From an uncultured Chromatiales bacterium (GTDB lineage: Bacteria; Bacteroidota; Ignavibacteria; SZUA-365; CAYQST01): a DNA stretch of 62,665 bases. The notes beneath the pieces are model-generated. The model was not told where the DNA came from. It saw nothing but the letters and a program-made list of their open reading frames with translations, and did no database searches. Below are positions 52,518 through 62,353 of the stretch, one piece after another. Positions within the stretch are counted from its first letter, which is position 1. Each line of letters starts with the position of its first letter. A program made the position numbers and the translations under genes. Where the stretch lies: positions 1-62,665 of the forward strand of contig CAYUYM010000002.1 in the NCBI GenBank assembly GCA_964449305.1. The letters run 5' to 3'.

Positions 52518-53897
52518 ATGAAGAGACTCTGCACCGCATTTCTGATCGCCTTCCTGATGCTGACCCCCGTGCTCGTCGCACAGACGGGCGGCATCACTGA
52601 ATCCATGGTCGATGAGCTCCGCGCATCGCTCACGATGGACGCATCGACCAAGGCCATGATCAACGCGCTCACGACGAACGACGTCCGCAAACTGGCGCAA
52701 AGCCGCCAGGCGGTGATCGAGACCAACACCTTCTTCTCCAACAAGCTCAAGACCGAGGGCATCACCGATCAGAAAAGCAGCGGCCGCTGCTGGTTGTTCG
52801 CCGGTCTCAACCTCATGCGCCCCGTGGCGATGAACAACCTCAACAAGAAGGGCTTCGAGTTTTCCCAGACCTATCTGTTCTTCTGGGACAAGATCGAGAA
52901 GTCCAACCTCTTTCTTGAATCCATCATCCGCACACGCACCCGCCCGGTGGACGACCGCGAGGTGGAGTGGCTGCTGAAGAATCCCTTCCCCGACGGCGGG
53001 CAATGGAACATGGTTGTCGCACTTGTCGGCAAGTACGGCGTGGTGCCGGCGGAAGTGATGCCGGAAACCGAGAGCTCGGGCAGCACCGGCACGCTCAACG
53101 CCATCCTTTCCACGCTCCTGCGCAGGGATGCCGCCGTTATCCGCGCGTCGAAGAAGTCCGATGCAGAATTGCAGACACTGAAGGTCGCCCTGCTCAAGGA
53201 CGTGTATCGCATCCTCGCCTTTCACCTCGGTGTTCCCCCGACGCGTTTCGACTATCGCTATGAAGGGAAGGACGGCAAGGTGACCGAGCCGGTCAGCTAC
53301 ACGCCGCAGGAGTTCTACCGGAAGCACGTGAACCTGGACCTGAACGACTACGTCTGTGTGTACAGCGTTCCGGCCCATCCCTTCAACAAGCTCTACCAGA
53401 TCCAGTTCGACCGCAACATGTTTGATCAGCCGAACATGACCTTCGTCAACCTCCCGATCGCCGACATGAAGGCGTATGCGCTGAAATCCCTGCTCGACAA
53501 TGAGCCGGTGTGGTTCGGGTGTGATGTGGGCAAGGAATCTGACAGCAAGCTGGGCGTGATGAAACGTGGGCTGTACGACTATCAGTCCGTCTACGGAGTC
53601 GATTTCTCGATGACGAAGGAGGAGCGCGTCCTCTACCAGGAATCCGTGCCGTCGCATGCCATGTTGTTCACCGGCGTGGATCTGGTGAACGGGAAGCCGG
53701 AGAAGTGGCTGGTGGAGAACAGTTGGGGATCGAAGGCCGGCAACGGCGGCATGTTCACGATGTATGACTCGTGGTTTGACGAATACATGTACACCGTGAT
53801 CGTGAAGAAGAAGTATCTGCCGAAGGCCGCACTCGATCTGCTCCAGACCAGGGCCGAGGTGCTGCCGCCGTGGGACCCGATGTTCTCGTTCCAATGA
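52518..53897 (+). CDS. pepC: Secreted C1B cysteine aminopeptidase (PepC/bleomycin hydrolase)
   Basis: DQKSSGRCWLF (Cys), SHAMLFTG (His), VENSWG (Asn), DGGQW. Signal peptide present. Confidence 0.94.
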   Translation: MKRLCTAFLIAFLMLTPVLVAQTGGITESMVDELRASLTMDASTKAMINALTTNDVRKLAQSRQAVIETNTFFSNKLKTEGITDQKSSGRCWLFAGLNLMRPVAMNNLNKKGFEFSQTYLFFWDKIEKSNLFLESIIRTRTRPVDDREVEWLLKNPFPDGGQWNMVVALVGKYGVVPAEVMPETESSGSTGTLNAILSTLLRRDAAVIRASKKSDAELQTLKVALLKDVYRILAFHLGVPPTRFDYRYEGKDGKVTEPVSYTPQEFYRKHVNLDLNDYVCVYSVPAHPFNKLYQIQFDRNMFDQPNMTFVNLPIADMKAYALKSLLDNEPVWFGCDVGKESDSKLGVMKRGLYDYQSVYGVDFSMTKEERVLYQESVPSHAMLFTGVDLVNGKPEKWLVENSWGSKAGNGGMFTMYDSWFDEYMYTVIVKKKYLPKAALDLLQTRAEVLPPWDPMFSFQ

Positions 53898-53912
53898 TCT
53901 GCATCCATCGTT

Positions 53913-53955
53913 CTCACGCAACAGGGGCGACCATCGGTCGCCCCTGTTGCGTGAG
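53913..53955. repeat. Perfect 20-bp inverted repeat (REP-like hairpin or terminator)
   Basis: CTCACGCAACAGGGGCGACC-ATC-GGTCGCCCCTGTTGCGTGAG. Confidence 0.8.
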
Positions 53956-54224
53956 GCACACCATTTTTCCATTGTGGCTCGTCTGGCGCGCAAACGCCGA
54001 TCCGGGGCGTTTCGTTCCCGGCATTTCGGAGGAATTTTCTCGTTTCGAAAAAACCCGTATCTTCCTCCCTTCATTTGCGACTTCCAGTATCTCGAAAGCA
54101 CCAAACGATTGATCAGACCTGATAGAGCCACATCTCACCTGACCGGGAAGGGAGTCCGCCCACAGTGATCCCCCATGTCCTGAAGGTGGCGGCGCCCCAT
54201 TCACCACAAACCATGGAGCCCACT

Positions 54225-54719
54225 ATGAGCACGGGCGTGTACGCGCTTGCACGTTTTCAGCACCAGGACAACCTGCTTCCGGCTGCCGCCGTCATTGCCG
54301 CGCTCCCGGCCGTGACGCAGTGGGACGCTGTCGATGGCCACATGCACATTGTCATGAAACTCGCCGTGGCGCGTGAGGAGGTCCCCGGAGAGCTGCTAGC
54401 GCTGGACGGGCTGGCCGACATGCAGGTGGCCGAGATCATGGCCCCCCTTCCCGCCACTGCGACGATGGATCCCGCGGCGGCCCATGCCCGCGTCTTCATC
54501 GAGATCGATCACACGCGCGCCGGCGAGCTGCGACGGTGCCTCGCCGACGTCCCCGGCATCGTGGAATGCGAGGAGACCGCGGGCCCCTTCGATCTCGCCT
54601 GCCTGCTCCAGGCGCCCACCTTCAGCGACATCCAGCACATCGTCGACCGGAAGCTCCAACTGCTCGACGGCGTGGTGCGGATCCGCCAGAACCGCATCAT
54701 CGAACTCACCAGCTTATAG
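54225..54719 (+). CDS. Tandem Lrp/AsnC ligand-binding (RAM) domain protein without HTH
   Basis: Two beta-alpha-beta repeats (ALPAVTQWDAVDGHMHIVMK; DVPGIVECEETAGPFDLAC..Q...DIQ....LDGV). GGAG RBS before ATG 54225. Confidence 0.7.
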   Translation: MSTGVYALARFQHQDNLLPAAAVIAALPAVTQWDAVDGHMHIVMKLAVAREEVPGELLALDGLADMQVAEIMAPLPATATMDPAAAHARVFIEIDHTRAGELRRCLADVPGIVECEETAGPFDLACLLQAPTFSDIQHIVDRKLQLLDGVVRIRQNRIIELTSL

Positions 54720-54728
54720 AGGACAGAA

Positions 54729-55220
54729 ATGGCAGAAACCGCAACTCCCGAGTTCAGGCCGTTCAACGTCGATCTCTGGAAACACGACGGGCATGCAGGC
54801 GCGCTCATCCCGCTCCTGCAATCGGCGCAGGACACCTATGGCTACGTCTCGGAAAAGGCCATCGACTCCATCAGCCATGTGACGGGCATCCCCTCAGCCG
54901 AGATCTATGGCGTGGTGACATTCTACGCCCAGTTCCGCACCAAGCCGCTCGGGAAGAACATCATCAAGGTGTGCAATGGCACCGCCTGTCATGTCAACGG
55001 CGCCAGGGCGGTCTACACCGTGATCCAGGACGAGCTCAACATCAACTACGACGAGACCTCCGACGATGGCATGTTCAGCCTCCTGTCTGTGGCATGCATC
55101 GGGTGCTGCTCGCTCGCACCTGTCATCACGATCAACGGTGAAACATACGGTCGGCTCACGTCGCAGAAACTGCGCAAGATTCTCAAGGATTTTCGTCGCC
55201 GTGCGGCGGAAGCGGAATAG
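54729..55220 (+). CDS. NuoE/HydC-like [2Fe-2S] subunit (BfuC-like)
   Basis: LIPLLQ.AQD.YGY, YGVVTFY, VCNGTACH, VACIGCCSLAP. Confidence 0.93.
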   Translation: MAETATPEFRPFNVDLWKHDGHAGALIPLLQSAQDTYGYVSEKAIDSISHVTGIPSAEIYGVVTFYAQFRTKPLGKNIIKVCNGTACHVNGARAVYTVIQDELNINYDETSDDGMFSLLSVACIGCCSLAPVITINGETYGRLTSQKLRKILKDFRRRAAEAE

Positions 55221-55229
55221 GGGGCCATC

Positions 55230-56984
55230 ATGACCATCGTGAAAATCGGACTCGGAACCTGCGGCATCTCCGCCGGCGGGGAGAAAGTGTACAAGGCCTT
55301 CGAGGAGGAGCTGAAGGAGCGCCCCGATGCCTTCATCCTCCAGGAGACGGGCTGCATCGGCATGTGTTATCGCGAGGTGCTGGTGGAGGTGGACAACGGC
55401 GCCGCGCGGCATCTCTACGGCGACGTCACCCCCGACAGGGTGTCGCGCATCATCGACGAGGATGTCCTCGGAGGGATGGCGGTTGAAGAATGGCTCGTCA
55501 ACGGCGAGGGCCGCGAGGCGGGCTTCTTCGAGAACCAGGTGCGCATCGTGCTCCGCAACTGTGGCATCATCGATCCCGGTTCCATCGAGGAGTACATCGA
55601 CGCGGGTGGATACCAGGCGATCGAGAAGGCGCTCACCACCATGACGCCCGACGACGTGATCCGCGAGGTGGCGGAATCCGGACTGCGCGGACGCGGCGGC
55701 GGCGGCTTCCCGACGGGCACGAAATGGAGATTCACCCGCCAGGCCGCGGGGGATCTCAAGTACATCGTCTGCAACGCCGACGAAGGCGACCCGGGCGCGT
55801 TCATGGATCGCTCCGTGCTCGAATCCGATCCCCACGCGGTGCTCGAGGGCATGATCATCGCGGCCTACGCCATCGGTGCGTCGGACTCCTACATTTACTG
55901 CCGGGCCGAATACCCCAAGGCCATCACCCGGCTGCGCCAGGCCATCGCCCAGGCCCGCCGGAAGGGGCTGCTCGGCGACAACATCCTCGGCACGGGCTTC
56001 AGCTTCGAGATCAGAATCAAGGAGGGCGCCGGCGCGTTCGTCTGCGGCGAGGAAACGGCGCTCATCGCCTCCATCGAGGGACGCCGCGGCATGCCGCGCA
56101 TCCGGCCGCCCTTCCCGGCGGTGAAGGGATTGTGGGGCAGGCCCACGAACATCAACAATGTCGAGACCTTTGCGAACATCCCGTGGATCATCCTCAACGG
56201 CGGGGCGGCCTTCGCCGCCCACGGCACGGCCGACAGCAAGGGCACCAAGGTGTTCGCCATGGCGGGCAAGGTGGCACGCGCGGGTCTGATCGAGGTGCCC
56301 ATGGGCGTCACCATCAACTCCGTCATCTTCGACATCTGCGGCGGCATCGTCGACAACCGCCAGTTCAAGGCCGTCCAGATGGGCGGACCATCGGGCGGCT
56401 GCATCCCGGCCCACATGTGTGATCTGCCCATCGACTACCAGCAGATCAACAGCACCGGCGCCATCATGGGCTCCGGCGGCCTCATCGTGATGGACGAGAC
56501 CACCTGCATGGTGGATGTCGCCAAGTTCTTCCTCACCTTCACCCAGGCCGAATCCTGCGGGAAGTGCACCTTCTGCCGTATCGGCACCAAGCGCATGCTC
56601 GAAATCCTGGAGCGCATCACCGACGGAAAGGGCACGCTGGAGGATCTCGACAACCTCGAGGAACTGAGCGCCCAGATCAAGGCTGCATCCCTCTGCGGCC
56701 TCGGGCAGACAGCCCCGAACCCCGTCGTCACCACACTCAAGTACTTCCGTGATGAGTATGTGTCCCACATCGTGGACAGGAAATGCCCGGCGCATGTGTG
56801 CGCCCCGCTCATCGAGTACACCATCCTGGACAATTGCACCGGCTGCATGGTGTGCAAGCGCGCATGTCCCACCGAGGCCATCTCGGGCGAGAAAAAGGTA
56901 ATCCACGTCATCGATCAGGAACTCTGCATCAAGTGCGGCAAGTGTTTCGACGTATGCCGCTTTGATTCGGTGCTGAAGAATTGA
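55230..56984 (+). CDS. NuoF/HydB-like FMN/NAD(H) subunit with extra N- and C-terminal FeS domains (BfuB-like)
   Basis: N-terminal GTCG...GCIGMC; GLRGRGGGGFPTG; NADEGDPGAFM; GAFVCGEETAL; GGPSGG; ESCGKCTFC...C; C-terminal CTGCMVC..ACP and CIKCGKC..VC. Confidence 0.94.
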   Translation: MTIVKIGLGTCGISAGGEKVYKAFEEELKERPDAFILQETGCIGMCYREVLVEVDNGAARHLYGDVTPDRVSRIIDEDVLGGMAVEEWLVNGEGREAGFFENQVRIVLRNCGIIDPGSIEEYIDAGGYQAIEKALTTMTPDDVIREVAESGLRGRGGGGFPTGTKWRFTRQAAGDLKYIVCNADEGDPGAFMDRSVLESDPHAVLEGMIIAAYAIGASDSYIYCRAEYPKAITRLRQAIAQARRKGLLGDNILGTGFSFEIRIKEGAGAFVCGEETALIASIEGRRGMPRIRPPFPAVKGLWGRPTNINNVETFANIPWIILNGGAAFAAHGTADSKGTKVFAMAGKVARAGLIEVPMGVTINSVIFDICGGIVDNRQFKAVQMGGPSGGCIPAHMCDLPIDYQQINSTGAIMGSGGLIVMDETTCMVDVAKFFLTFTQAESCGKCTFCRIGTKRMLEILERITDGKGTLEDLDNLEELSAQIKAASLCGLGQTAPNPVVTTLKYFRDEYVSHIVDRKCPAHVCAPLIEYTILDNCTGCMVCKRACPTEAISGEKKVIHVIDQELCIKCGKCFDVCRFDSVLKN

Positions 56985-56992
56985 GGCGCACC

Positions 56993-59900
56993 ATGATCAC
57001 TCTCACCATCAATGGCCGACAGGTCACCGCTTCCGAGGATCGCACCATTCGCGAGATCTGCCACGAGCAGAACATCGACTCCATCCCGACCCTCTGTCAC
57101 GACGAGAAACTCCCGCCCTTCGGCTCCTGCTTCCTGTGCGTGGTGGAGGTGGAGGGGCAGAGCCGCCTGTTCCCCGCCTGCTCCACCAAGCCGGTGCAGG
57201 GCATGGTCATCCATACACGCTCCGACAAGGTGGTGCGTGCGCGCAAGACCTGCCTCGAGCTGCTCCTGTCGGATCACTATGCGGACTGTTTCGGCCCCTG
57301 CCGCCTCAACTGCCCGGCGGACATCGACATCCAGGGCTACATGTCGCTCATCAGTCTCGGCAAGTTTCGCGAGGCGGTGGCGTTGATCAAGGAGAAGAAT
57401 CCGCTTCCGAGCGTCTGCGGCCGCGTCTGCACGCGCAAATGTGAGCTCAACTGCCGCCGCAACCTGCTCGACGAACCGGTGGGCATCGACTTTCTCAAGC
57501 GCTATGTGGCCGATTGGGACATGATCGACGAGATGTGGCAGCCCGAGGTGAAGCCGCTCAACGGGAAGCGCGTGGCGGTGATCGGTTCGGGCCCCGCGGG
57601 CATGACCTGTGCCTACTACCTGCGCCTCGAAGGCTACCACCCCACCGTGCACGAAGCCCTGCCGGATCTTGGCGGCATGCTCCGCTATGGCATCCCGGAA
57701 TACCGCCTCCCCAAGGAGGTGCTGGCGAAGGAGATCAACTGGATCCTCGACCTTGGCGTCGACGTCCACACGAACACCAAGCTCGGCCGCGATTTCACCA
57801 TGGACCACCTCTTTGAGCAGGGTTACTCAGCAGTGTTTGTTGCACTCGGCGCACAGATCGGCAAGCCCATGCAGGTGGAGAACGAGGATGTTCGTGGCGT
57901 GCTGAGCGGTGTGGAATTCCTGAAGCAGGTGGAGATGAAGACAAACCCCGACATGAAGGGGCGCGTGGTGGTGGTGGGTGGTGGCAACACCGCCATTGAT
58001 GCCGCTCGCACGTCGCTGCGCCTTGGGGCGGATGAAGTGATCCTGCTCTACCGCCGGACGCGGAACGAAATGCCGGCCAACATGATCGAGATAGAAGCCG
58101 CCGAACACGAGGGTGTCAGGATGGAATTCCTGGCGGCACCCGTGCGCGTCAATGTGGAGGACGAGCGCATGGCATCAATCGATTGCATCCGCATGGAGCT
58201 CGGTGAACCCGATGCCAGCGGCCGCCGCCGCCCGGTGGTGGTCCAGGGTTCGGAGTACACGCTGACATGCGACTGGGTGATCTCCGCGATCGGGCAGGAA
58301 CCGGATCTCGACGGCGTGGCCGGCGCGGGCGACATCAAGGTCACGAAGTGGAGCACCATCGTCGCGCGCCCCGGCACCTTTGCCACCGACCGCCCAGGCG
58401 TGTTCTCGGGTGGCGATGTGGTTTCCGGTCCCGCCGACGCCATTGATGCGATCGCTGCCGGCAGGCTCGCAGCCGAAGCCATCCACAAGTTCATCGAGAC
58501 GGGCGTGGTGGATCCCATCCGCAAGCGCTTCGAGTCCACACGCGATGCCTTCCACACACTGGTGGAGGCCGACATCCCCGGTGTTCCGAAAGTGGAACGC
58601 AACGTGGCCTCCGAGCGCCCGGCTCATGAGCGCATCCACGATTTCAAGGAGGTCGAGTTCGCGTACACGGTGGAGGAGGCGATGGAGGAGACGCTGCGCT
58701 GCGCCGAATGCGGCTGCGATGTGGGTCTCGCCTGCGCACTTCAGGATTACTGCACGGAATACGGGGTGGATCAGCACCGCTTCATCGGGGAGTTCAACCG
58801 CTACTCGGTGGACACGCGTCATCCCTTCATCAAGATCGATTCCAACAAGTGCATCCGCTGCGGTCGGTGCGTGAACACCTGCGCCGATGTGCTCAACGTG
58901 GCCGCCCTCGGTTTCGTGAACCGCGGCTTCCGCACCATCGTGAAGCCCGCGCTCGAGAAGGCCCTGCATGAAACGAACTGCGTCTCCTGCGGCAACTGCA
59001 TCGACGTGTGCCCCACTGGAGCGCTGGTGGAGAAGATGCCCTACCGCCGATCGGGTCCCTGGGTGATGGAGCCGGTGTTCAACGTGTGCAACCACTGCTC
59101 GGTGGGCTGCAATGTGACGGTGAACGTGAAGACCTCCGACATTTTCTTCATCTCCGGAGCCTCGCCCGAACTTCCGCCGAACCATGGCGAGCTCTGTGTG
59201 CGCGGGCGTTTCGGGTACCAGCAGTATCTCGACGGAACGCGGCAGAAACACCCGATGGTCCGCCGGGGCGGGCAGCTTGTGGAGGTGGGCTGGGATGAAG
59301 CGTTCAACGTCGTACAGGCGGGTTTCGAGCGCATCCTCGAGGACCACGGCCCGCAGGCCCTCGCCGTGGCGGCATCACCCAAGCTGACGAACGAGGAGCT
59401 GTATGCGGCCGGCCGGTTGGCTCGCGCCGCAATGGGGACGAACACGATCTTCTCCTTCCACCAGCTCCAGAACGGCGCTGACTACCACGCGCTTGATGCC
59501 ATGCTTGGGACCACCGCATCCACCGTCGGGATGGAGGAGTTCCTCGACGCGGATCTCTACCTGGTGCTCGGAGGCAACCCCACGCAGGAGAACCCCGTGC
59601 TCGGCTGGCAGATGAAGCGCCGGATGAAACAGGGCACGGCATCCATCGTGATCAATTCCGCCGCCATCGATCTCACGAGCCACGCGTCCGTGTGGGCCGA
59701 TCCGCGGCGCGGCAGTGCCACGGCGCTGCTCAACGGCGTCATCGCCGAGATCGTCCGCCGGGAGGCCTACGACGCCGCGTTCATCGCAGCACACACCACC
59801 GGCTTCGATGCGGTGCGCGACAGGCTGGCAGCTCCCGACCTCGCCGAGGTGGCCGCGGTGACGGGGGTGACGCAGGAGAAGATCCTCGCCATGGTGGATC

Positions 59901-60703
59901 TTTTGTGCGACCCATCGCGGAGGATCGTCGCCTGGTACAACATGGAAAGCCGCATCGAGCGTGCCTCAAACGATGCGGATGCACTGGCCACGCTCATGCT
60001 GCTGCTTGGCAGGATCGGCAGGCCCGGATCGGGCATCGCGCTTCTCTCGGGACAGTGCAACACCGAGGGCATGCGCCGTGCCGGCTTCGATGCGCACCTG
60101 CTGCCCGGCGGCATGCCGCCCGACACGGGAGATGCCACGGTGGTCAACGCCCTTTGGGGCATGGACTGCGCGGCGCTCATCCGAGAGGCGGGCACGAACA
60201 TCGGCCGGACCATGCGTGAGGACAGAATCCGCGGCATGGTGATTCTCGGCGAGAATCCCGCCGTATCGCCGGACTACAACGCCTTCATCAACGCGCTGGA
60301 ATTCCGTGTCGTCTGCGATCTGTGGCTGACCGAGACAGCGCAGGCGGCTGATGTGTTCCTGCCGTTCTCGACGCATCTCGAGACGGAGGGAGCCTTCACG
60401 AACTGGTGCGGCAAGATACAGCGGGCGACGCCGATCGGCGATCCTGCCAACGGTATGGAGGGCTTCGCCATCATTGCCCACATGGCCGCTCTGCTCGGAC
60501 GGCCCTTTGATGCATCGATCGCGACCGCAACCGATGAGCTCGAACGTCTCACCGTGTCCGTCACACCCGGATTTGCCACCCCCGATGGGCGTGCCCACTT
60601 CCAGCATCATGCGGAACATGTGAGTCACATCCCCGCGGTGGTGCCCCAAGTGCTGGAGCTCGATGCCCGTGTGGCGGACAGGATGAAGCTCATCAGGGCA
60701 TGA
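56993..60703 (+). CDS. Large multidomain oxidoreductase: [2Fe-2S] + GltD/NfnB-like FAD-NADPH module + FeS relay + degenerate molybdopterin-oxidoreductase fold (BfuA-like)
   Basis: IPTLC..GSCFLC..PAC; PCRLNCPA..CGRVC..CE..C; GSGPAG; GGGNTAID..YRRTR; CAEC..C.LQ..C; CIRCGRC..C and CVSCGNC..VCP; CNHCSVGC..LC.RG; then NuoG/Fdh-like domains (ADVFLP...E.EG.FTN). ATG 56993 with GAGG RBS. Confidence 0.88.
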   Translation: MITLTINGRQVTASEDRTIREICHEQNIDSIPTLCHDEKLPPFGSCFLCVVEVEGQSRLFPACSTKPVQGMVIHTRSDKVVRARKTCLELLLSDHYADCFGPCRLNCPADIDIQGYMSLISLGKFREAVALIKEKNPLPSVCGRVCTRKCELNCRRNLLDEPVGIDFLKRYVADWDMIDEMWQPEVKPLNGKRVAVIGSGPAGMTCAYYLRLEGYHPTVHEALPDLGGMLRYGIPEYRLPKEVLAKEINWILDLGVDVHTNTKLGRDFTMDHLFEQGYSAVFVALGAQIGKPMQVENEDVRGVLSGVEFLKQVEMKTNPDMKGRVVVVGGGNTAIDAARTSLRLGADEVILLYRRTRNEMPANMIEIEAAEHEGVRMEFLAAPVRVNVEDERMASIDCIRMELGEPDASGRRRPVVVQGSEYTLTCDWVISAIGQEPDLDGVAGAGDIKVTKWSTIVARPGTFATDRPGVFSGGDVVSGPADAIDAIAAGRLAAEAIHKFIETGVVDPIRKRFESTRDAFHTLVEADIPGVPKVERNVASERPAHERIHDFKEVEFAYTVEEAMEETLRCAECGCDVGLACALQDYCTEYGVDQHRFIGEFNRYSVDTRHPFIKIDSNKCIRCGRCVNTCADVLNVAALGFVNRGFRTIVKPALEKALHETNCVSCGNCIDVCPTGALVEKMPYRRSGPWVMEPVFNVCNHCSVGCNVTVNVKTSDIFFISGASPELPPNHGELCVRGRFGYQQYLDGTRQKHPMVRRGGQLVEVGWDEAFNVVQAGFERILEDHGPQALAVAASPKLTNEELYAAGRLARAAMGTNTIFSFHQLQNGADYHALDAMLGTTASTVGMEEFLDADLYLVLGGNPTQENPVLGWQMKRRMKQGTASIVINSAAIDLTSHASVWADPRRGSATALLNGVIAEIVRREAYDAAFIAAHTTGFDAVRDRLAAPDLAEVAAVTGVTQEKILAMVDLLCDPSRRIVAWYNMESRIERASNDADALATLMLLLGRIGRPGSGIALLSGQCNTEGMRRAGFDAHLLPGGMPPDTGDATVVNALWGMDCAALIREAGTNIGRTMREDRIRGMVILGENPAVSPDYNAFINALEFRVVCDLWLTETAQAADVFLPFSTHLETEGAFTNWCGKIQRATPIGDPANGMEGFAIIAHMAALLGRPFDASIATATDELERLTVSVTPGFATPDGRAHFQHHAEHVSHIPAVVPQVLELDARVADRMKLIRA

Positions 60704-60815
60704 CGCGACCGGTCGGACCACAGCGGGAAGCATCACAGGCCGGCATCGGTCTGCCCGTTCCATTTCCATGAACCAGGGGGGGAAGAAATGGCAGGAAGAA
60801 GGGCATTTCTTTTCC

Positions 60816-60823
60816 TACATTTG
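60816..60823 (+). promoter_or_regulatory. Bacteroidota-type -7 promoter box
   Basis: TACATTTG(C) about 30 nt upstream of the thioredoxin ATG 60854, in an AT-rich gap. Confidence 0.55.
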
Positions 60824-60853
60824 CGCAATTGTTTCCGAACACAGGAAATCCCC

Positions 60854-61375
60854 ATGTGCCGCTTCCTTGTCCCGATCCTTCTCATCACCCTGTCACTGAC
60901 CACCCTCGCCCAGAAGGCGGAGAAGCCTGCCGTCGCTCCCGCGGAGAAGTCCCACGTCCGCATCTACGATGACACGGTCGACGCCATGGCAGCGCTTGAT
61001 GCTGCGGTCGCACGGGCCGGGGTGTCGAGACGGCATGTGCTGGTGCAGGTGGGTGGGAACTGGTGTCCCTGGTGCATCAAGTTCCACACGCTGTGCAGCA
61101 CGAATGCGCGCATCGACTCGCTGTTGCGGGCGGATTACGAGGTGGTGCTGGTGAACTACAGCAGGGAGAATCAGAATCGTGAGGCGATGAAGCGCCTGGG
61201 GTACCCGCAACGGTTCGGATTCCCGGTGTTCGTGGTGCTCGATGGGCGGGGGTCGCGGCTGCACACACAGGATTCGGGCTTTCTTGAGGGCGGATCCGCA
61301 CATGATCCGGAGAAGGTGCTGACCTTCCTGCGCAGCTGGACACCGGGCGCACTCGATCCCGACAGGTACCGATAA
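60854..61375 (+). CDS. Exported thioredoxin family protein
   Basis: Signal peptide, VLVQVGGNWCPWCIKF, QRFGFPVFVVLD..G..LH.QDSG.LE. Confidence 0.9.
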   Translation: MCRFLVPILLITLSLTTLAQKAEKPAVAPAEKSHVRIYDDTVDAMAALDAAVARAGVSRRHVLVQVGGNWCPWCIKFHTLCSTNARIDSLLRADYEVVLVNYSRENQNREAMKRLGYPQRFGFPVFVVLDGRGSRLHTQDSGFLEGGSAHDPEKVLTFLRSWTPGALDPDRYR

Positions 61376-61396
61376 CAGGAGCCGGGACCGAACATC

Positions 61397-62353
61397 ATGA
61401 CCGACCGCACCAGAGGCGCGGACATCGACGACCGCACAGGCTCTGAGATGTTCCTTCGCAACATCATGAACAGCCAGCGCATCGTGGGTGGGGCATTTGA
61501 GGACGCCCTGGCCGACATCCTTGATCAATACGCGGCCTACGCCGGGACGACAGAGGGGGGCAAGGTGTCGGCATCGGTCCTCACGCGGAGGATCGGGCGT
61601 GAGATTCGTCGTGGACTGGCGGGGCTGCATCCCAACGGCTTCGAGTTCGCCATCTGGTTGTGGGATGTGGCGCCCATCCATCATATCGAGATCCAAGCCG
61701 ACTCGGCACTGCGCATGCGTGAGCTGGTGTTCTACTATCTGCGCACGTTGGCGGCGATCATCACGCAGGACTACGTGGCCCAGCAGCCCGACAGGGCGGG
61801 GCAGGTGGTGGAGCTGTTGGATTCGAGCATTCTGTACCTCGACGCCCGCAACCTTCTGGTGTTGTCGGGACTGTTGTCGCAGTATCAGGATCAGGTGATC
61901 CAGCAGTATCATGAGCTGCTGGCGCTGGCGGAGGGGAGGCAGGTGCGGCGCAAGCTTCTGCCGCTTGTCGTCTGTGAAGCCGCAGTGGAGCGTCACCCCG
62001 AACACACGTCACGGTGCCTTGCATTGGCGGAGCGGATCTTTCCGAGCACCGGAGACAGGATACTGGGGTATGCGATGTTCAAGGCATTGACTGCGGCGCT
62101 ATGGCACGGAGAATCGGGTGCCTTCGCGGAGTTTCTTGTATCGCGGGAGTTGGAACCGGACCCCTTCATCCGCAGGATGTTTGCCGATATCATCGCCGGT
62201 GGAGATGCGCGGTTGTTCACACCAGAGTTCGTGACAAAGGCAGTGCCCGTGCTGACCACTTGGGAGCGCGAAGCGGGCCGCCAGCAGCGTCCCGGATTCC
62301 TGCGAGCGTTGAAGGCGCTGGAACGGCGGGGGCCGGACGGGGCCAGACCTTAA
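61397..62353 (+). CDS. Hypothetical all-alpha protein (no family recognised)
   Basis: A 318-codon ORF downstream of the thioredoxin on the same strand. The stop TAA lies at the centre of a 14-bp palindrome. Confidence 0.6.
   Translation: MTDRTRGADIDDRTGSEMFLRNIMNSQRIVGGAFEDALADILDQYAAYAGTTEGGKVSASVLTRRIGREIRRGLAGLHPNGFEFAIWLWDVAPIHHIEIQADSALRMRELVFYYLRTLAAIITQDYVAQQPDRAGQVVELLDSSILYLDARNLLVLSGLLSQYQDQVIQQYHELLALAEGRQVRRKLLPLVVCEAAVERHPEHTSRCLALAERIFPSTGDRILGYAMFKALTAALWHGESGAFAEFLVSRELEPDPFIRRMFADIIAGGDARLFTPEFVTKAVPVLTTWEREAGRQQRPGFLRALKALERRGPDGARP

Follow-up and report, generated by a model that had tools for sequence, protein, structure and literature searches.

The DNA analysed here (the window) is a 62,665-nucleotide stretch of contig CAYUYM010000002.1 from an uncultured Chromatiales bacterium, placed by GTDB in the Ignavibacteria, and it contains a compact gene cluster that very probably encodes an electron-bifurcating NADPH/NADH/ferredoxin transhydrogenase, a member of the known Nfn-Bfu/Stn family. 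An open reading frame (ORF) scan shows four tightly packed + strand genes across positions 54225–60703, separated by intergenic gaps of 9, 9 and 8 nt. The first (54225–54719, + strand) encodes a 164-aa tandem RAM protein with Lrp/AsnC-type ligand-binding domains and lacking a helix-turn-helix (Pfam AsnC_trans_reg, 44 bits). It is followed by bfuC (54729–55220, +), encoding a NuoE-like protein of 163 aa (BfuC, equivalent to NfnC or StnA; Pfam 2Fe-2S_thioredx, PF01257, 170.8 bits), by bfuB (55230–56984, +), encoding a NuoF-like protein of 584 aa (BfuB, NfnB or StnB; assigned from Pfam domains and PDB matches), and by bfuA (56993–60703, +), encoding the predicted NADPH-binding large subunit of 1236 aa (BfuA, NfnA or StnC; likewise assigned from Pfam and PDB matches). 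With an alternative TTG start at 56981 the bfuA product would have 1240 aa. The ATG at 56993 is the start used in the database copy (P0004) and in the homologues, and residue numbers below refer to the 1236-aa protein. A previous sequence-only reading of this DNA had described an operon of three genes. Its three ORFs stand, but the operon probably consists of four genes with the RAM gene first, the stop codon of which lies 9 nt before the bfuC start; judged by the 8–9-nt spacing, the RAM gene is probably co-transcribed with bfuCBA. The bfuC-bfuB-bfuA order and its tight spacing are seen again in eight related loci.

BfuC and BfuB make up the NuoE/NuoF-type core of the predicted enzyme. BfuC holds the ligands of a [2Fe-2S] cluster (C1), Cys82, Cys87, Cys123 and Cys127, within the motifs CNGTAC and CIGCC, and these residues correspond to C74, C79, C115 and C119 of Thermococcus sibiricus NfnC. 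Its best PDB matches are 9n5u_C (NfnC, 162 bits), 9bov_C (159 bits) and 8oh5_A (StnA, 153 bits). BfuB has Pfam matches to Complex1_51K, NADH_4Fe-4S and a C-terminal 2x[4Fe-4S] domain, along with a weak N-terminal thioredoxin-like match, so that both terminal domains named by the sequence-only reading were recovered, from Pfam and from alignments. The thioredoxin-like B5 site consists of Cys11, Cys42 and Cys46, the same as in 9bov_B, 8oh5_B and 9n5u_B according to the alignments; the His/Cys, Zn-type B2 site reads HIVDRKCPAHVC at residues 513–524; and the B3/B4 domain at the C-terminus contains two CxxCxxCxxxC(P) motifs, CTGCMVCKRACP and CIKCGKCFDVC. On these grounds BfuB is predicted to carry the FMN/NAD(H) site and the B1 [4Fe-4S] cluster, with its B3/B4 domain as the putative ferredoxin site. 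The best PDB matches of BfuB are 9bov_B (861 bits), 8oh5_B (857 bits) and 9n5u_B (843 bits), with hydrogenase HydB at no more than 775 bits, and in the PDB searches hydrogenase-type HydB and HydC both rank below the Nfn-type subunits.

The sequence-only reading had also pointed to GAFM (position 189), AFVCG (269) and GGPSG (385) in BfuB as marks of bifurcation. The residues are present and tell the HydB/HoxF-type proteins of the same genome from its complex I NuoF, but we rejected them as markers, since a HoxF-like protein of this genome has them too while lacking the C-terminal B3/B4 domain. It is the extra cluster domains that mark bifurcation, and BfuB has the B2, B5 and B3/B4 sites that non-bifurcating NuoF, FdsB and HoxF are without.

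BfuA is a composite protein with Pfam matches in the order Fer2_4, Fer4_20, Pyr_redox_2, Fer4_Nqo3, Molybdop_Fe4S4 and Molybdopterin; neither an H-cluster domain nor Molydop_binding (PF01568) was found in the Pfam scan. Its N-terminal HydA/NuoG-type module (56993–57289, +) is defined by Fer2_4 and by a partial NADH-G_4Fe-4S_3 match that ends at profile position 17, and contains the [2Fe-2S] ligands Cys35, Cys46, Cys49 and Cys63 as well as the first half of a His-ligated [4Fe-4S] motif (His95, Cys99). The second half of this split motif (Cys575, Cys581) is encoded at 58715–59080 (+), together with a NuoG-type 2x[4Fe-4S] ferredoxin domain (Fer4_Nqo3; ligands Cys620/623/626/630 and Cys663/666/669/673). 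Inserted between the two is a GltD/NfnB-like module (57290–58714, +; approximately residues 100–574), recognised by Fer4_20, Pyr_redox_2 and NCBIfam PRK12814 (635 bits) and matching NfnI-L (5jca_L, 300 bits) and 4ylf_B (317 bits) in the PDB. It includes an FAD-binding GSGPAG (198–203), an NADPH-binding GGGNTA (329–334, within a GGGNTAID beginning at 329) with YRRTR at 353–357, and extra cysteines at 103 and 107, at 142, 146, 150 and 154, and at 570 and 573. These motifs are conserved among the homologues.

BLASTP against the HydA of the same genome places the insertion precisely. BfuA 2–100 aligns with HydA 5–101, pairing His95 and Cys99 with HydA His97 and Cys101, and BfuA 575–681 aligns with HydA 104–210, pairing Cys575 and Cys581 with HydA Cys104 and Cys110. 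This puts the ~475-aa GltD module between ligands 2 and 3 of the His-ligated [4Fe-4S] motif HxxxCxxCxxxxxC, which refines the position given by the sequence-only reading, between the [2Fe-2S] cluster and the iron–sulfur relay; the module itself, with its GGGNTAID and YRRTR, is as that reading described it. Both junction motifs known from Nso and Stn are present, HxxxCxxxCxxxCP at 95–108 and CxxCxCxxxxC at 570–581. In an alignment of 109 full-length BfuA homologues, from which all our conservation figures are taken, the 31 cluster cysteines and His95 are invariant or nearly so, and this ligand set would be enough for one [2Fe-2S] and six [4Fe-4S] clusters, a count equal to that of StnC and NfnA.

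We assign the operon to the Nfn-Bfu/Stn family because all three subunits have 9bov, 8oh5 and 9n5u as their top PDB matches, closeness to characterised enzymes being judged here by bit-score ranking and not by a tree. For BfuA these matches are 9bov_A (838 bits, E=1.3e-250), 8oh5_C (775 bits, 2e-231) and 9n5u_A (661 bits, 4.9e-197). The traits of the family can be read from the sequences, namely C1 in BfuC, the additional sites of BfuB, the GltD insertion and the features of a cofactor-less formate dehydrogenase (FDH)-like tail in BfuA, together with the closest PDB relatives. No membrane Nuo genes lie next to the operon, the neighbours of which encode a peptidase, the RAM protein and a thioredoxin-like protein, and the nuoA-F cluster of this genome sits separately on contig C1; with the Pfam result for the H-cluster, this agrees with the sequence-only reading, which had found neither membrane Nuo subunits nor an H-cluster. 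The novelty which that reading implied for the GltD insertion finds no support. In StnC, NfnA and NsoC a GltD/NfnB-like FAD-NADPH module is integrated in a NuoG-like protein, leaving the motifs HxxxCxxxCxxxCP and CxxCxCxxxxC, and the FdhF-like C-terminal domain is catalytically inactive (PMC7483475, PMC10482914); the insertion is the defining architecture of these proteins, described since 2008–2020 and seen in cryo-EM structures from 2023–2025. Nfn-type Bfu enzymes in Bacteroidetes were listed by Schut et al. 2022.

In Stn, Caldicellulosiruptor saccharolyticus NfnABC and T. sibiricus NfnABC, ferredoxin reduction by NADPH requires NAD+ (PMC7483475, PMC10482914, PMC11829005, PMC12018979, PMC9304861). 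By analogy with these closest characterised relatives, a soluble NADPH:NAD+/ferredoxin transhydrogenase with a vestigial FDH scaffold, as proposed by the sequence-only reading, is supported. It is very improbable that the operon instead encodes a non-bifurcating NADPH-linked oxidoreductase, whether a diaphorase-like reductase in the manner of Nso or SfrAB (with S0, O2, Fe(III) or a further compound as acceptor) or simply an enzyme of the NADPH:ferredoxin or NADPH:NAD+ type. Thermococcus litoralis NsoABC was originally described as an NADPH-dependent sulfur/oxygen oxidoreductase, Stn also has uncoupled NADPH:NAD+ and viologen activities, SfrAB distributes similar modules over two chains, and the clade of ~1240-aa BfuA proteins to which the window protein belongs is known from its sequences. 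Against this, the window encodes a complete BfuBC bifurcating core including B3/B4, deletion of which abolishes bifurcation in HydABC, and all purified enzymes of the same architecture that were tested with NAD+ and ferredoxin bifurcate.

The C-terminal part of BfuA (59081–60703, +) is predicted to be a catalytically dead FdhF-like domain comprising FDH domains I–III only, with matches to Molybdop_Fe4S4 and Molybdopterin and none to PF01568. The automatic annotation of its homologues would make the protein a functional NAD(P)+-linked Mo/W formate dehydrogenase, and a Molybdopterin match of 125 bits, a TIGR01591 (Fdh-alpha) match of 288 bits, which is under the cut-off of 666 for that model, the FDH fold of the tail and the FDH-type database names all lean that way. 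The tail retains the ligands of its own [4Fe-4S] cluster (Cys699, Cys702, Cys706 and Cys735), and the sequence GTNTIFSFHQL, quoted by the sequence-only reading, is present at BfuA 815. Alignments with the FdhF of hydrogen-dependent CO2 reductase (HDCR) and with W/Mo-FDHs nevertheless show that the Sec/Cys, His and Arg positions of the FDH active site have become Gln826, Asn827 and Ser1019, and the metal-ligand position is occupied by V, L, A, T, I or Q among the 109 homologues, Cys occurring in none. The Molydop_binding β-barrel (domain IV), which caps the two pterin cofactors in FDHs, is absent, and BfuA ends ~40 residues past the ‘TPDGxAHF’ hairpin. The loss of the Cys/Sec ligand and of the C-terminal molybdopterin guanine dinucleotide (MGD)-binding domain, both claimed by the sequence-only reading, is thus borne out by alignment and by a structure model.

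Among the homologous enzymes, S. ovata (Sporomusa ovata) Stn does not oxidise formate with methyl viologen (PMC7483475), and no metals other than Fe and Zn occur in significant quantity in C. saccharolyticus NfnABC, as measured by ICP-MS (inductively coupled plasma mass spectrometry; PMC11829005), and in T. sibiricus NfnABC, as measured by elemental analysis (PMC12018979). MoaA, MoaC, MoaE and MoeA were not found in the genome assembly (98.9% complete), which would fit the same picture; we do not rely on this absence, because xanthine dehydrogenase (XDH)-family and aldehyde:ferredoxin oxidoreductase (AFOR)-like genes occur in the same genome. Taken together, a working Mo/W formate dehydrogenase appears already contradicted by the sequence, and we give it a near-negligible probability. 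That the tail binds no Mo/W cofactor and oxidises no formate belongs to the explanation that we hold with high confidence, a bifurcating Nfn-Bfu enzyme.

As for the XDH-family and AFOR-like genes without Moa or MoeA proteins, cofactor salvage, undetected genes or cofactor-free enzymes are possible explanations. The XDH-family cluster (L019:4319-6646:- and its neighbours) has MoCoBD_1/2 matches, an FAD/2Fe-2S subunit, a YgfK-like GltD protein and an amidohydrolase. The only other GltD-like (Fer4_20) gene of the genome lies within this XDH/YgfK-type cluster.

An AlphaFold2 model of the tail, which was folded alone and not as part of the full-length 1236-aa protein, has a predicted local distance difference test score (pLDDT) of 92.7. 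In Foldseek searches against FDHs it gave TM-scores of 0.84–0.87 for the query (TMq) over domains I–III and of ~0.5–0.7 for the full-length FDH chains as target (TMt), a coverage of about half to two thirds of these chains that is consistent with the predicted absence of the β-barrel domain IV. When searched alone, the tail sequence scores higher against HDCR FdhF (205 bits) and W-FDH (201 bits) than against the tails of StnC (137 bits) and C. saccharolyticus NfnA (132 bits), and the fold comparison gives the same ranking, with a TMq of 0.77–0.78 for the StnC and NfnA tails against 0.84–0.87 for FDHs. Identity to the tails of the solved NfnA and StnC is ~23%. The ranking suggests that Nfn-type BfuA descends from an FDH-type subunit and that the tail has decayed more slowly in the ~1240-aa clade; the preservation of FDH likeness restores no catalytic residue. 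The tail is also the least conserved part of BfuA, with a mean identity of 51% against 71–82% elsewhere and ~15% of near-invariant columns (conserved in >=95% of sequences) against 35–42% elsewhere. In Stn, deletion of the FdhF-like domain or of its clusters blocks tetramer assembly (PMC10482914), and by analogy with S. ovata the BfuA tail most likely has its part in assembly or oligomerisation.

The RAM gene is a recurrent companion of the bfu genes. Of the 13 operons that we examined, in several phyla, 12 have it directly 5′ of bfuC, either by itself or as a receiver-domain fusion: the RAM protein stands alone in the window and in L001, L002, L004–L007, L017, L020 and L021, is a receiver-RAM fusion in L016 and L023, and has no counterpart in L022, where we rejected a 172-aa gene upstream as a candidate, since it does not align and looks like a membrane protein. 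L016 (Syntrophorhabdus) and L023 represent a sister clade at 46–47% BfuA identity; the fusion occupies the RAM position there, and genes for a PAS kinase and a sigma-54 activator lie 3′ of bfuA. The AlphaFold2 model of the window protein (pLDDT 89) shows two β-α-β-β-α-β domains, a pair of ferredoxin-like RAM folds. A fold search returned generic ferredoxin-like dimers (NirDL, Cld/ChdC-like) and single RAM modules, giving no functional lead; NCBIfam gave no match, and the PDB sequence search gave weak single-RAM matches only. In the literature that we searched, no account of a linkage between RAM proteins and Nfn-Bfu enzymes was found.

The RAM protein may regulate the system. More specifically, and with considerable doubt, it could be a dedicated fourth component in this multi-phylum ~1240-aa clade, acting on the enzyme rather than on DNA and tuning the NADPH/NADH/ferredoxin balance to an amino acid or another metabolite, perhaps through binding to BfuC or to the FDH-like tail, which is unusually well preserved. 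A further alternative is that the enzyme is a bifurcating Nfn-Bfu complex in which the tail has a role beyond scaffolding, such as metabolite or partner binding or the gating of side-branch clusters, perhaps shared with the RAM protein. The greater nearness of the tail to true FDHs than to the StnC and NfnA tails, in sequence and in fold, its confident model and the near-invariant ~15% of its columns would suit this idea, as would the retention of the RAM gene and its receiver fusion in the sister clade. The tail is however the fastest-evolving part of the protein, its former active-site positions vary freely, and none of our observations ties the RAM protein physically to the enzyme, so that we regard a tail of this kind as very improbable. 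Genes for single-domain response-regulator receivers, assigned by eye, also adjoin other NuoE/NuoF-type operons of the genome (L014:5023-5412 on contig C151 and L012:4148-4603:- on contig C9); one lies 5′ of a NuoEFG-like trio and another 3′ of HydABC, which recalls the Syntrophorhabdus-type receiver-RAM fusions.

Our preferred reading of the operon, a bifurcating Nfn-Bfu transhydrogenase with an inactive tail, has several points weighing against it. Activity in the ~1240-aa clade, which spans Zixibacteria, Ignavibacteria, Acidobacteriota and Syntrophorhabdus, is argued from homology. The low identity of the tail to those of solved relatives, combined with its higher FDH than StnC/NfnA scores, means that its role may differ from that in S. 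ovata. The operons published for the S. ovata and T. sibiricus enzymes consist of three genes and include nothing equivalent to the conserved RAM gene. The B5 site offers just three cysteines, which would fit Zn and [2Fe-2S] alike. Finally, the genomic argument against a molybdenum cofactor is weak, as the coexisting XDH-family and AFOR-like genes are normally pterin-dependent.

If the enzyme works like its solved homologues, NADPH would reduce the FAD in the GltD module of BfuA, and single electrons would then run along the cluster wire of BfuA as far as the [B1-FMN-C1] flavobicluster of BfuBC, where two electron pairs would be split: a hydride would pass from FMN to NAD+, and the other two electrons, of low potential, would reach ferredoxin one by one, by way of the mobile C1 domain in BfuC and the B3/B4 clusters in BfuB. 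The bifurcation reaction would be reversible, and the likely physiological direction is Fd(red) + NADH + 2 NADP+ -> Fd(ox) + NAD+ + 2 NADPH (Fd, ferredoxin), which would supply NADPH for biosynthesis. We favour this NADPH-forming direction because the genome has several 2-oxoacid:ferredoxin oxidoreductases and an [FeFe] HydABC hydrogenase and no PntAB. The genome, of 3.95 Mb, contains at least four 2-oxoacid:ferredoxin oxidoreductase genes (POR_N), a Hox-type [NiFe] hydrogenase and complex I alongside HydABC, and PntB was not found in it. It also has what we read as an alternative complex III (ACIII) cluster, from a 994-aa ActB-like subunit and its neighbours; this 994-aa protein has the sole Molydop_binding match in the genome.

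Full-length BfuA homologues number more than 100, at 46–73% identity, and belong to metagenome-assembled genomes (MAGs) of Zixibacteria, Ignavibacteria, Bacteroidota, Calditrichaeota, Acidobacteriota, Nitrospinota and Syntrophorhabdus; the majority carry the label formate dehydrogenase or molybdopterin oxidoreductase. Distribution is patchy in the phylum of the window itself, where 12 of 201 genomes gave a match at E<=1e-150, an orthologue (69% identity) being present in just one. Shorter BfuA-like proteins occur in one family of the same phylum (G021, G034, G050, G086, G090, G114 and G158), with frames of ~1000 aa and ~820 aa that match window BfuA residues 5–820 or 5–637 only, variants in which the FDH-like tail is truncated or missing. 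In a MAG labelled Verrucomicrobia, an HNH endonuclease gene and a 70-aa gene on the opposite strand lie between bfuB and bfuA (L021:3233-3869), and the BfuA of that locus (P0081) has a low-complexity insertion in the GltD module right before the NADPH-binding GGGNTA.

A different arrangement of related modules was seen on contig C46 of the same genome (L013:1412-4735:-), where a 1107-aa protein fuses AFOR_N, NuoE, NuoF and 2x[4Fe-4S]; the protein after it has Fer2_4, Fer4 and AFOR_C (L013:1-1410:-) and is truncated at the contig edge. From its domains, we take the pair to be an unusual Wor-Bfu-like system in which the aldehyde:ferredoxin oxidoreductase fold would be divided over two Bfu subunits.

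The operon is flanked by a C1-family peptidase gene on the 5′ side and by a gene for a thioredoxin-like protein on the 3′ side. A promoter and terminator scan of 53800–61500 gave zero sigma-70 sites and a terminator count not above that of shuffled sequence, a result that is uninformative for an organism of the FCB (Fibrobacteres–Chlorobi–Bacteroidetes) type. A match to TAnnTTTG, the Bacteroidota-type −7 promoter motif, is present at 60813–60820 (TACATTTG), 5′ of the thioredoxin-like gene, which suggests that this gene is transcribed on its own. At 54069–54076, ~150 nt 5′ of the RAM gene, there is a near match (TTCATTTG). The FCB-group host proposed by the sequence-only reading is consistent with the promoter-like motif and with the nearest homologues, which come from Zixibacteria, Ignavibacteriales and Calditrichaeota.

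These assignments bear on how such proteins are labelled. Thousands of database entries named ‘formate dehydrogenase major subunit’ or ‘molybdopterin-dependent oxidoreductase’ should read NADPH-binding subunit of a bifurcating transhydrogenase, and relabelling them alters how metabolism is reconstructed for Zixibacteria, Ignavibacteria, Calditrichaeota and related MAGs, where a ferredoxin-coupled NADPH route takes the place of formate metabolism. The architecture and the enzyme family were already known; the conserved RAM gene is undescribed in the literature that we searched, and the less degenerate FDH-like tail is also of modest interest.

Of the characterised systems, C. saccharolyticus NfnABC (Type-1 Nfn-Bfu; PDB 9BOV/9BP5; Li et al. 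2025, PMC11829005) is the best PDB match for both BfuA and BfuB, the NfnA alignment (9bov_A) spanning BfuA residues 5–1207. It is like the complex predicted for the window in its subunits, domain order, seven iron–sulfur clusters and FAD in the A subunit, ligands of B5, B2, B3 and B4, and cofactor-free tail. It comes from a thermophilic Firmicute, and its A subunit has 1178 aa compared with 1236 aa in the window, where the tail has a ~30-aa insertion near residues 1032–1068 and a longer C-terminus; we found no RAM gene described for its operon. S. ovata StnABC (Sporomusa-type Nfn; PDB 8OH5/8OH9; Kremp et al. 2020, PMC7483475; Kumar et al. 2023, PMC10482914) has the same architecture as the window enzyme, down to HxxxCxxxCxxxCP, CxxCxCxxxxC, the NADPH motif GxGxxA and an FdhF-like domain that is inactive and has two side-branch clusters. 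The A-subunit sequence alignment extends to residue 879 only, and tail-mediated tetramerisation is a trait demonstrated for Stn. The stn genes form a three-gene unit by the Wood-Ljungdahl cluster of an acetogen, whereas the window genes lie beside a peptidase gene in a heterotroph-type genome. T. sibiricus NfnABC (PDB 9N5U/9N5V; PMC12018979) and T. litoralis NsoABC have in common with the window enzyme the BfuBC core (BfuB 843 bits, BfuC 162 bits) and the fusion of GltD in NuoG, but T. sibiricus NfnA, at 963 aa, is ~270 aa shorter and has neither the A4 [2Fe-2S] ligands nor the whole of the tail, whereas window BfuA keeps all ligands.

More distant comparisons concern the separate modules. In Geobacter sulfurreducens SfrAB, which we liken to BfuA by description, the GltD-like NADPH/FAD subunit SfrB and the NuoG/Fdh-like iron–sulfur subunit SfrA correspond to modules that are fused in BfuA, but they form two chains and are without the NuoE/NuoF-type bifurcating core. 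NfnAB/NfnSL (e.g. Pyrococcus furiosus NfnI, PDB 5JCA) has the overall reaction in common with the window enzyme, and the GltD-like module of BfuA is homologous to NfnB/NfnL; the partners in the window are NuoE- and NuoF-like and not the FNR-like [2Fe-2S] NfnA/S. NfnAB, with its unrelated partner subunit, bifurcates at the FAD of NfnB, whereas the FAD of Stn no longer bifurcates (PMC10482914) and Nfn-Bfu enzymes, among which we place the window complex, bifurcate at the FMN flavobicluster of BfuBC.

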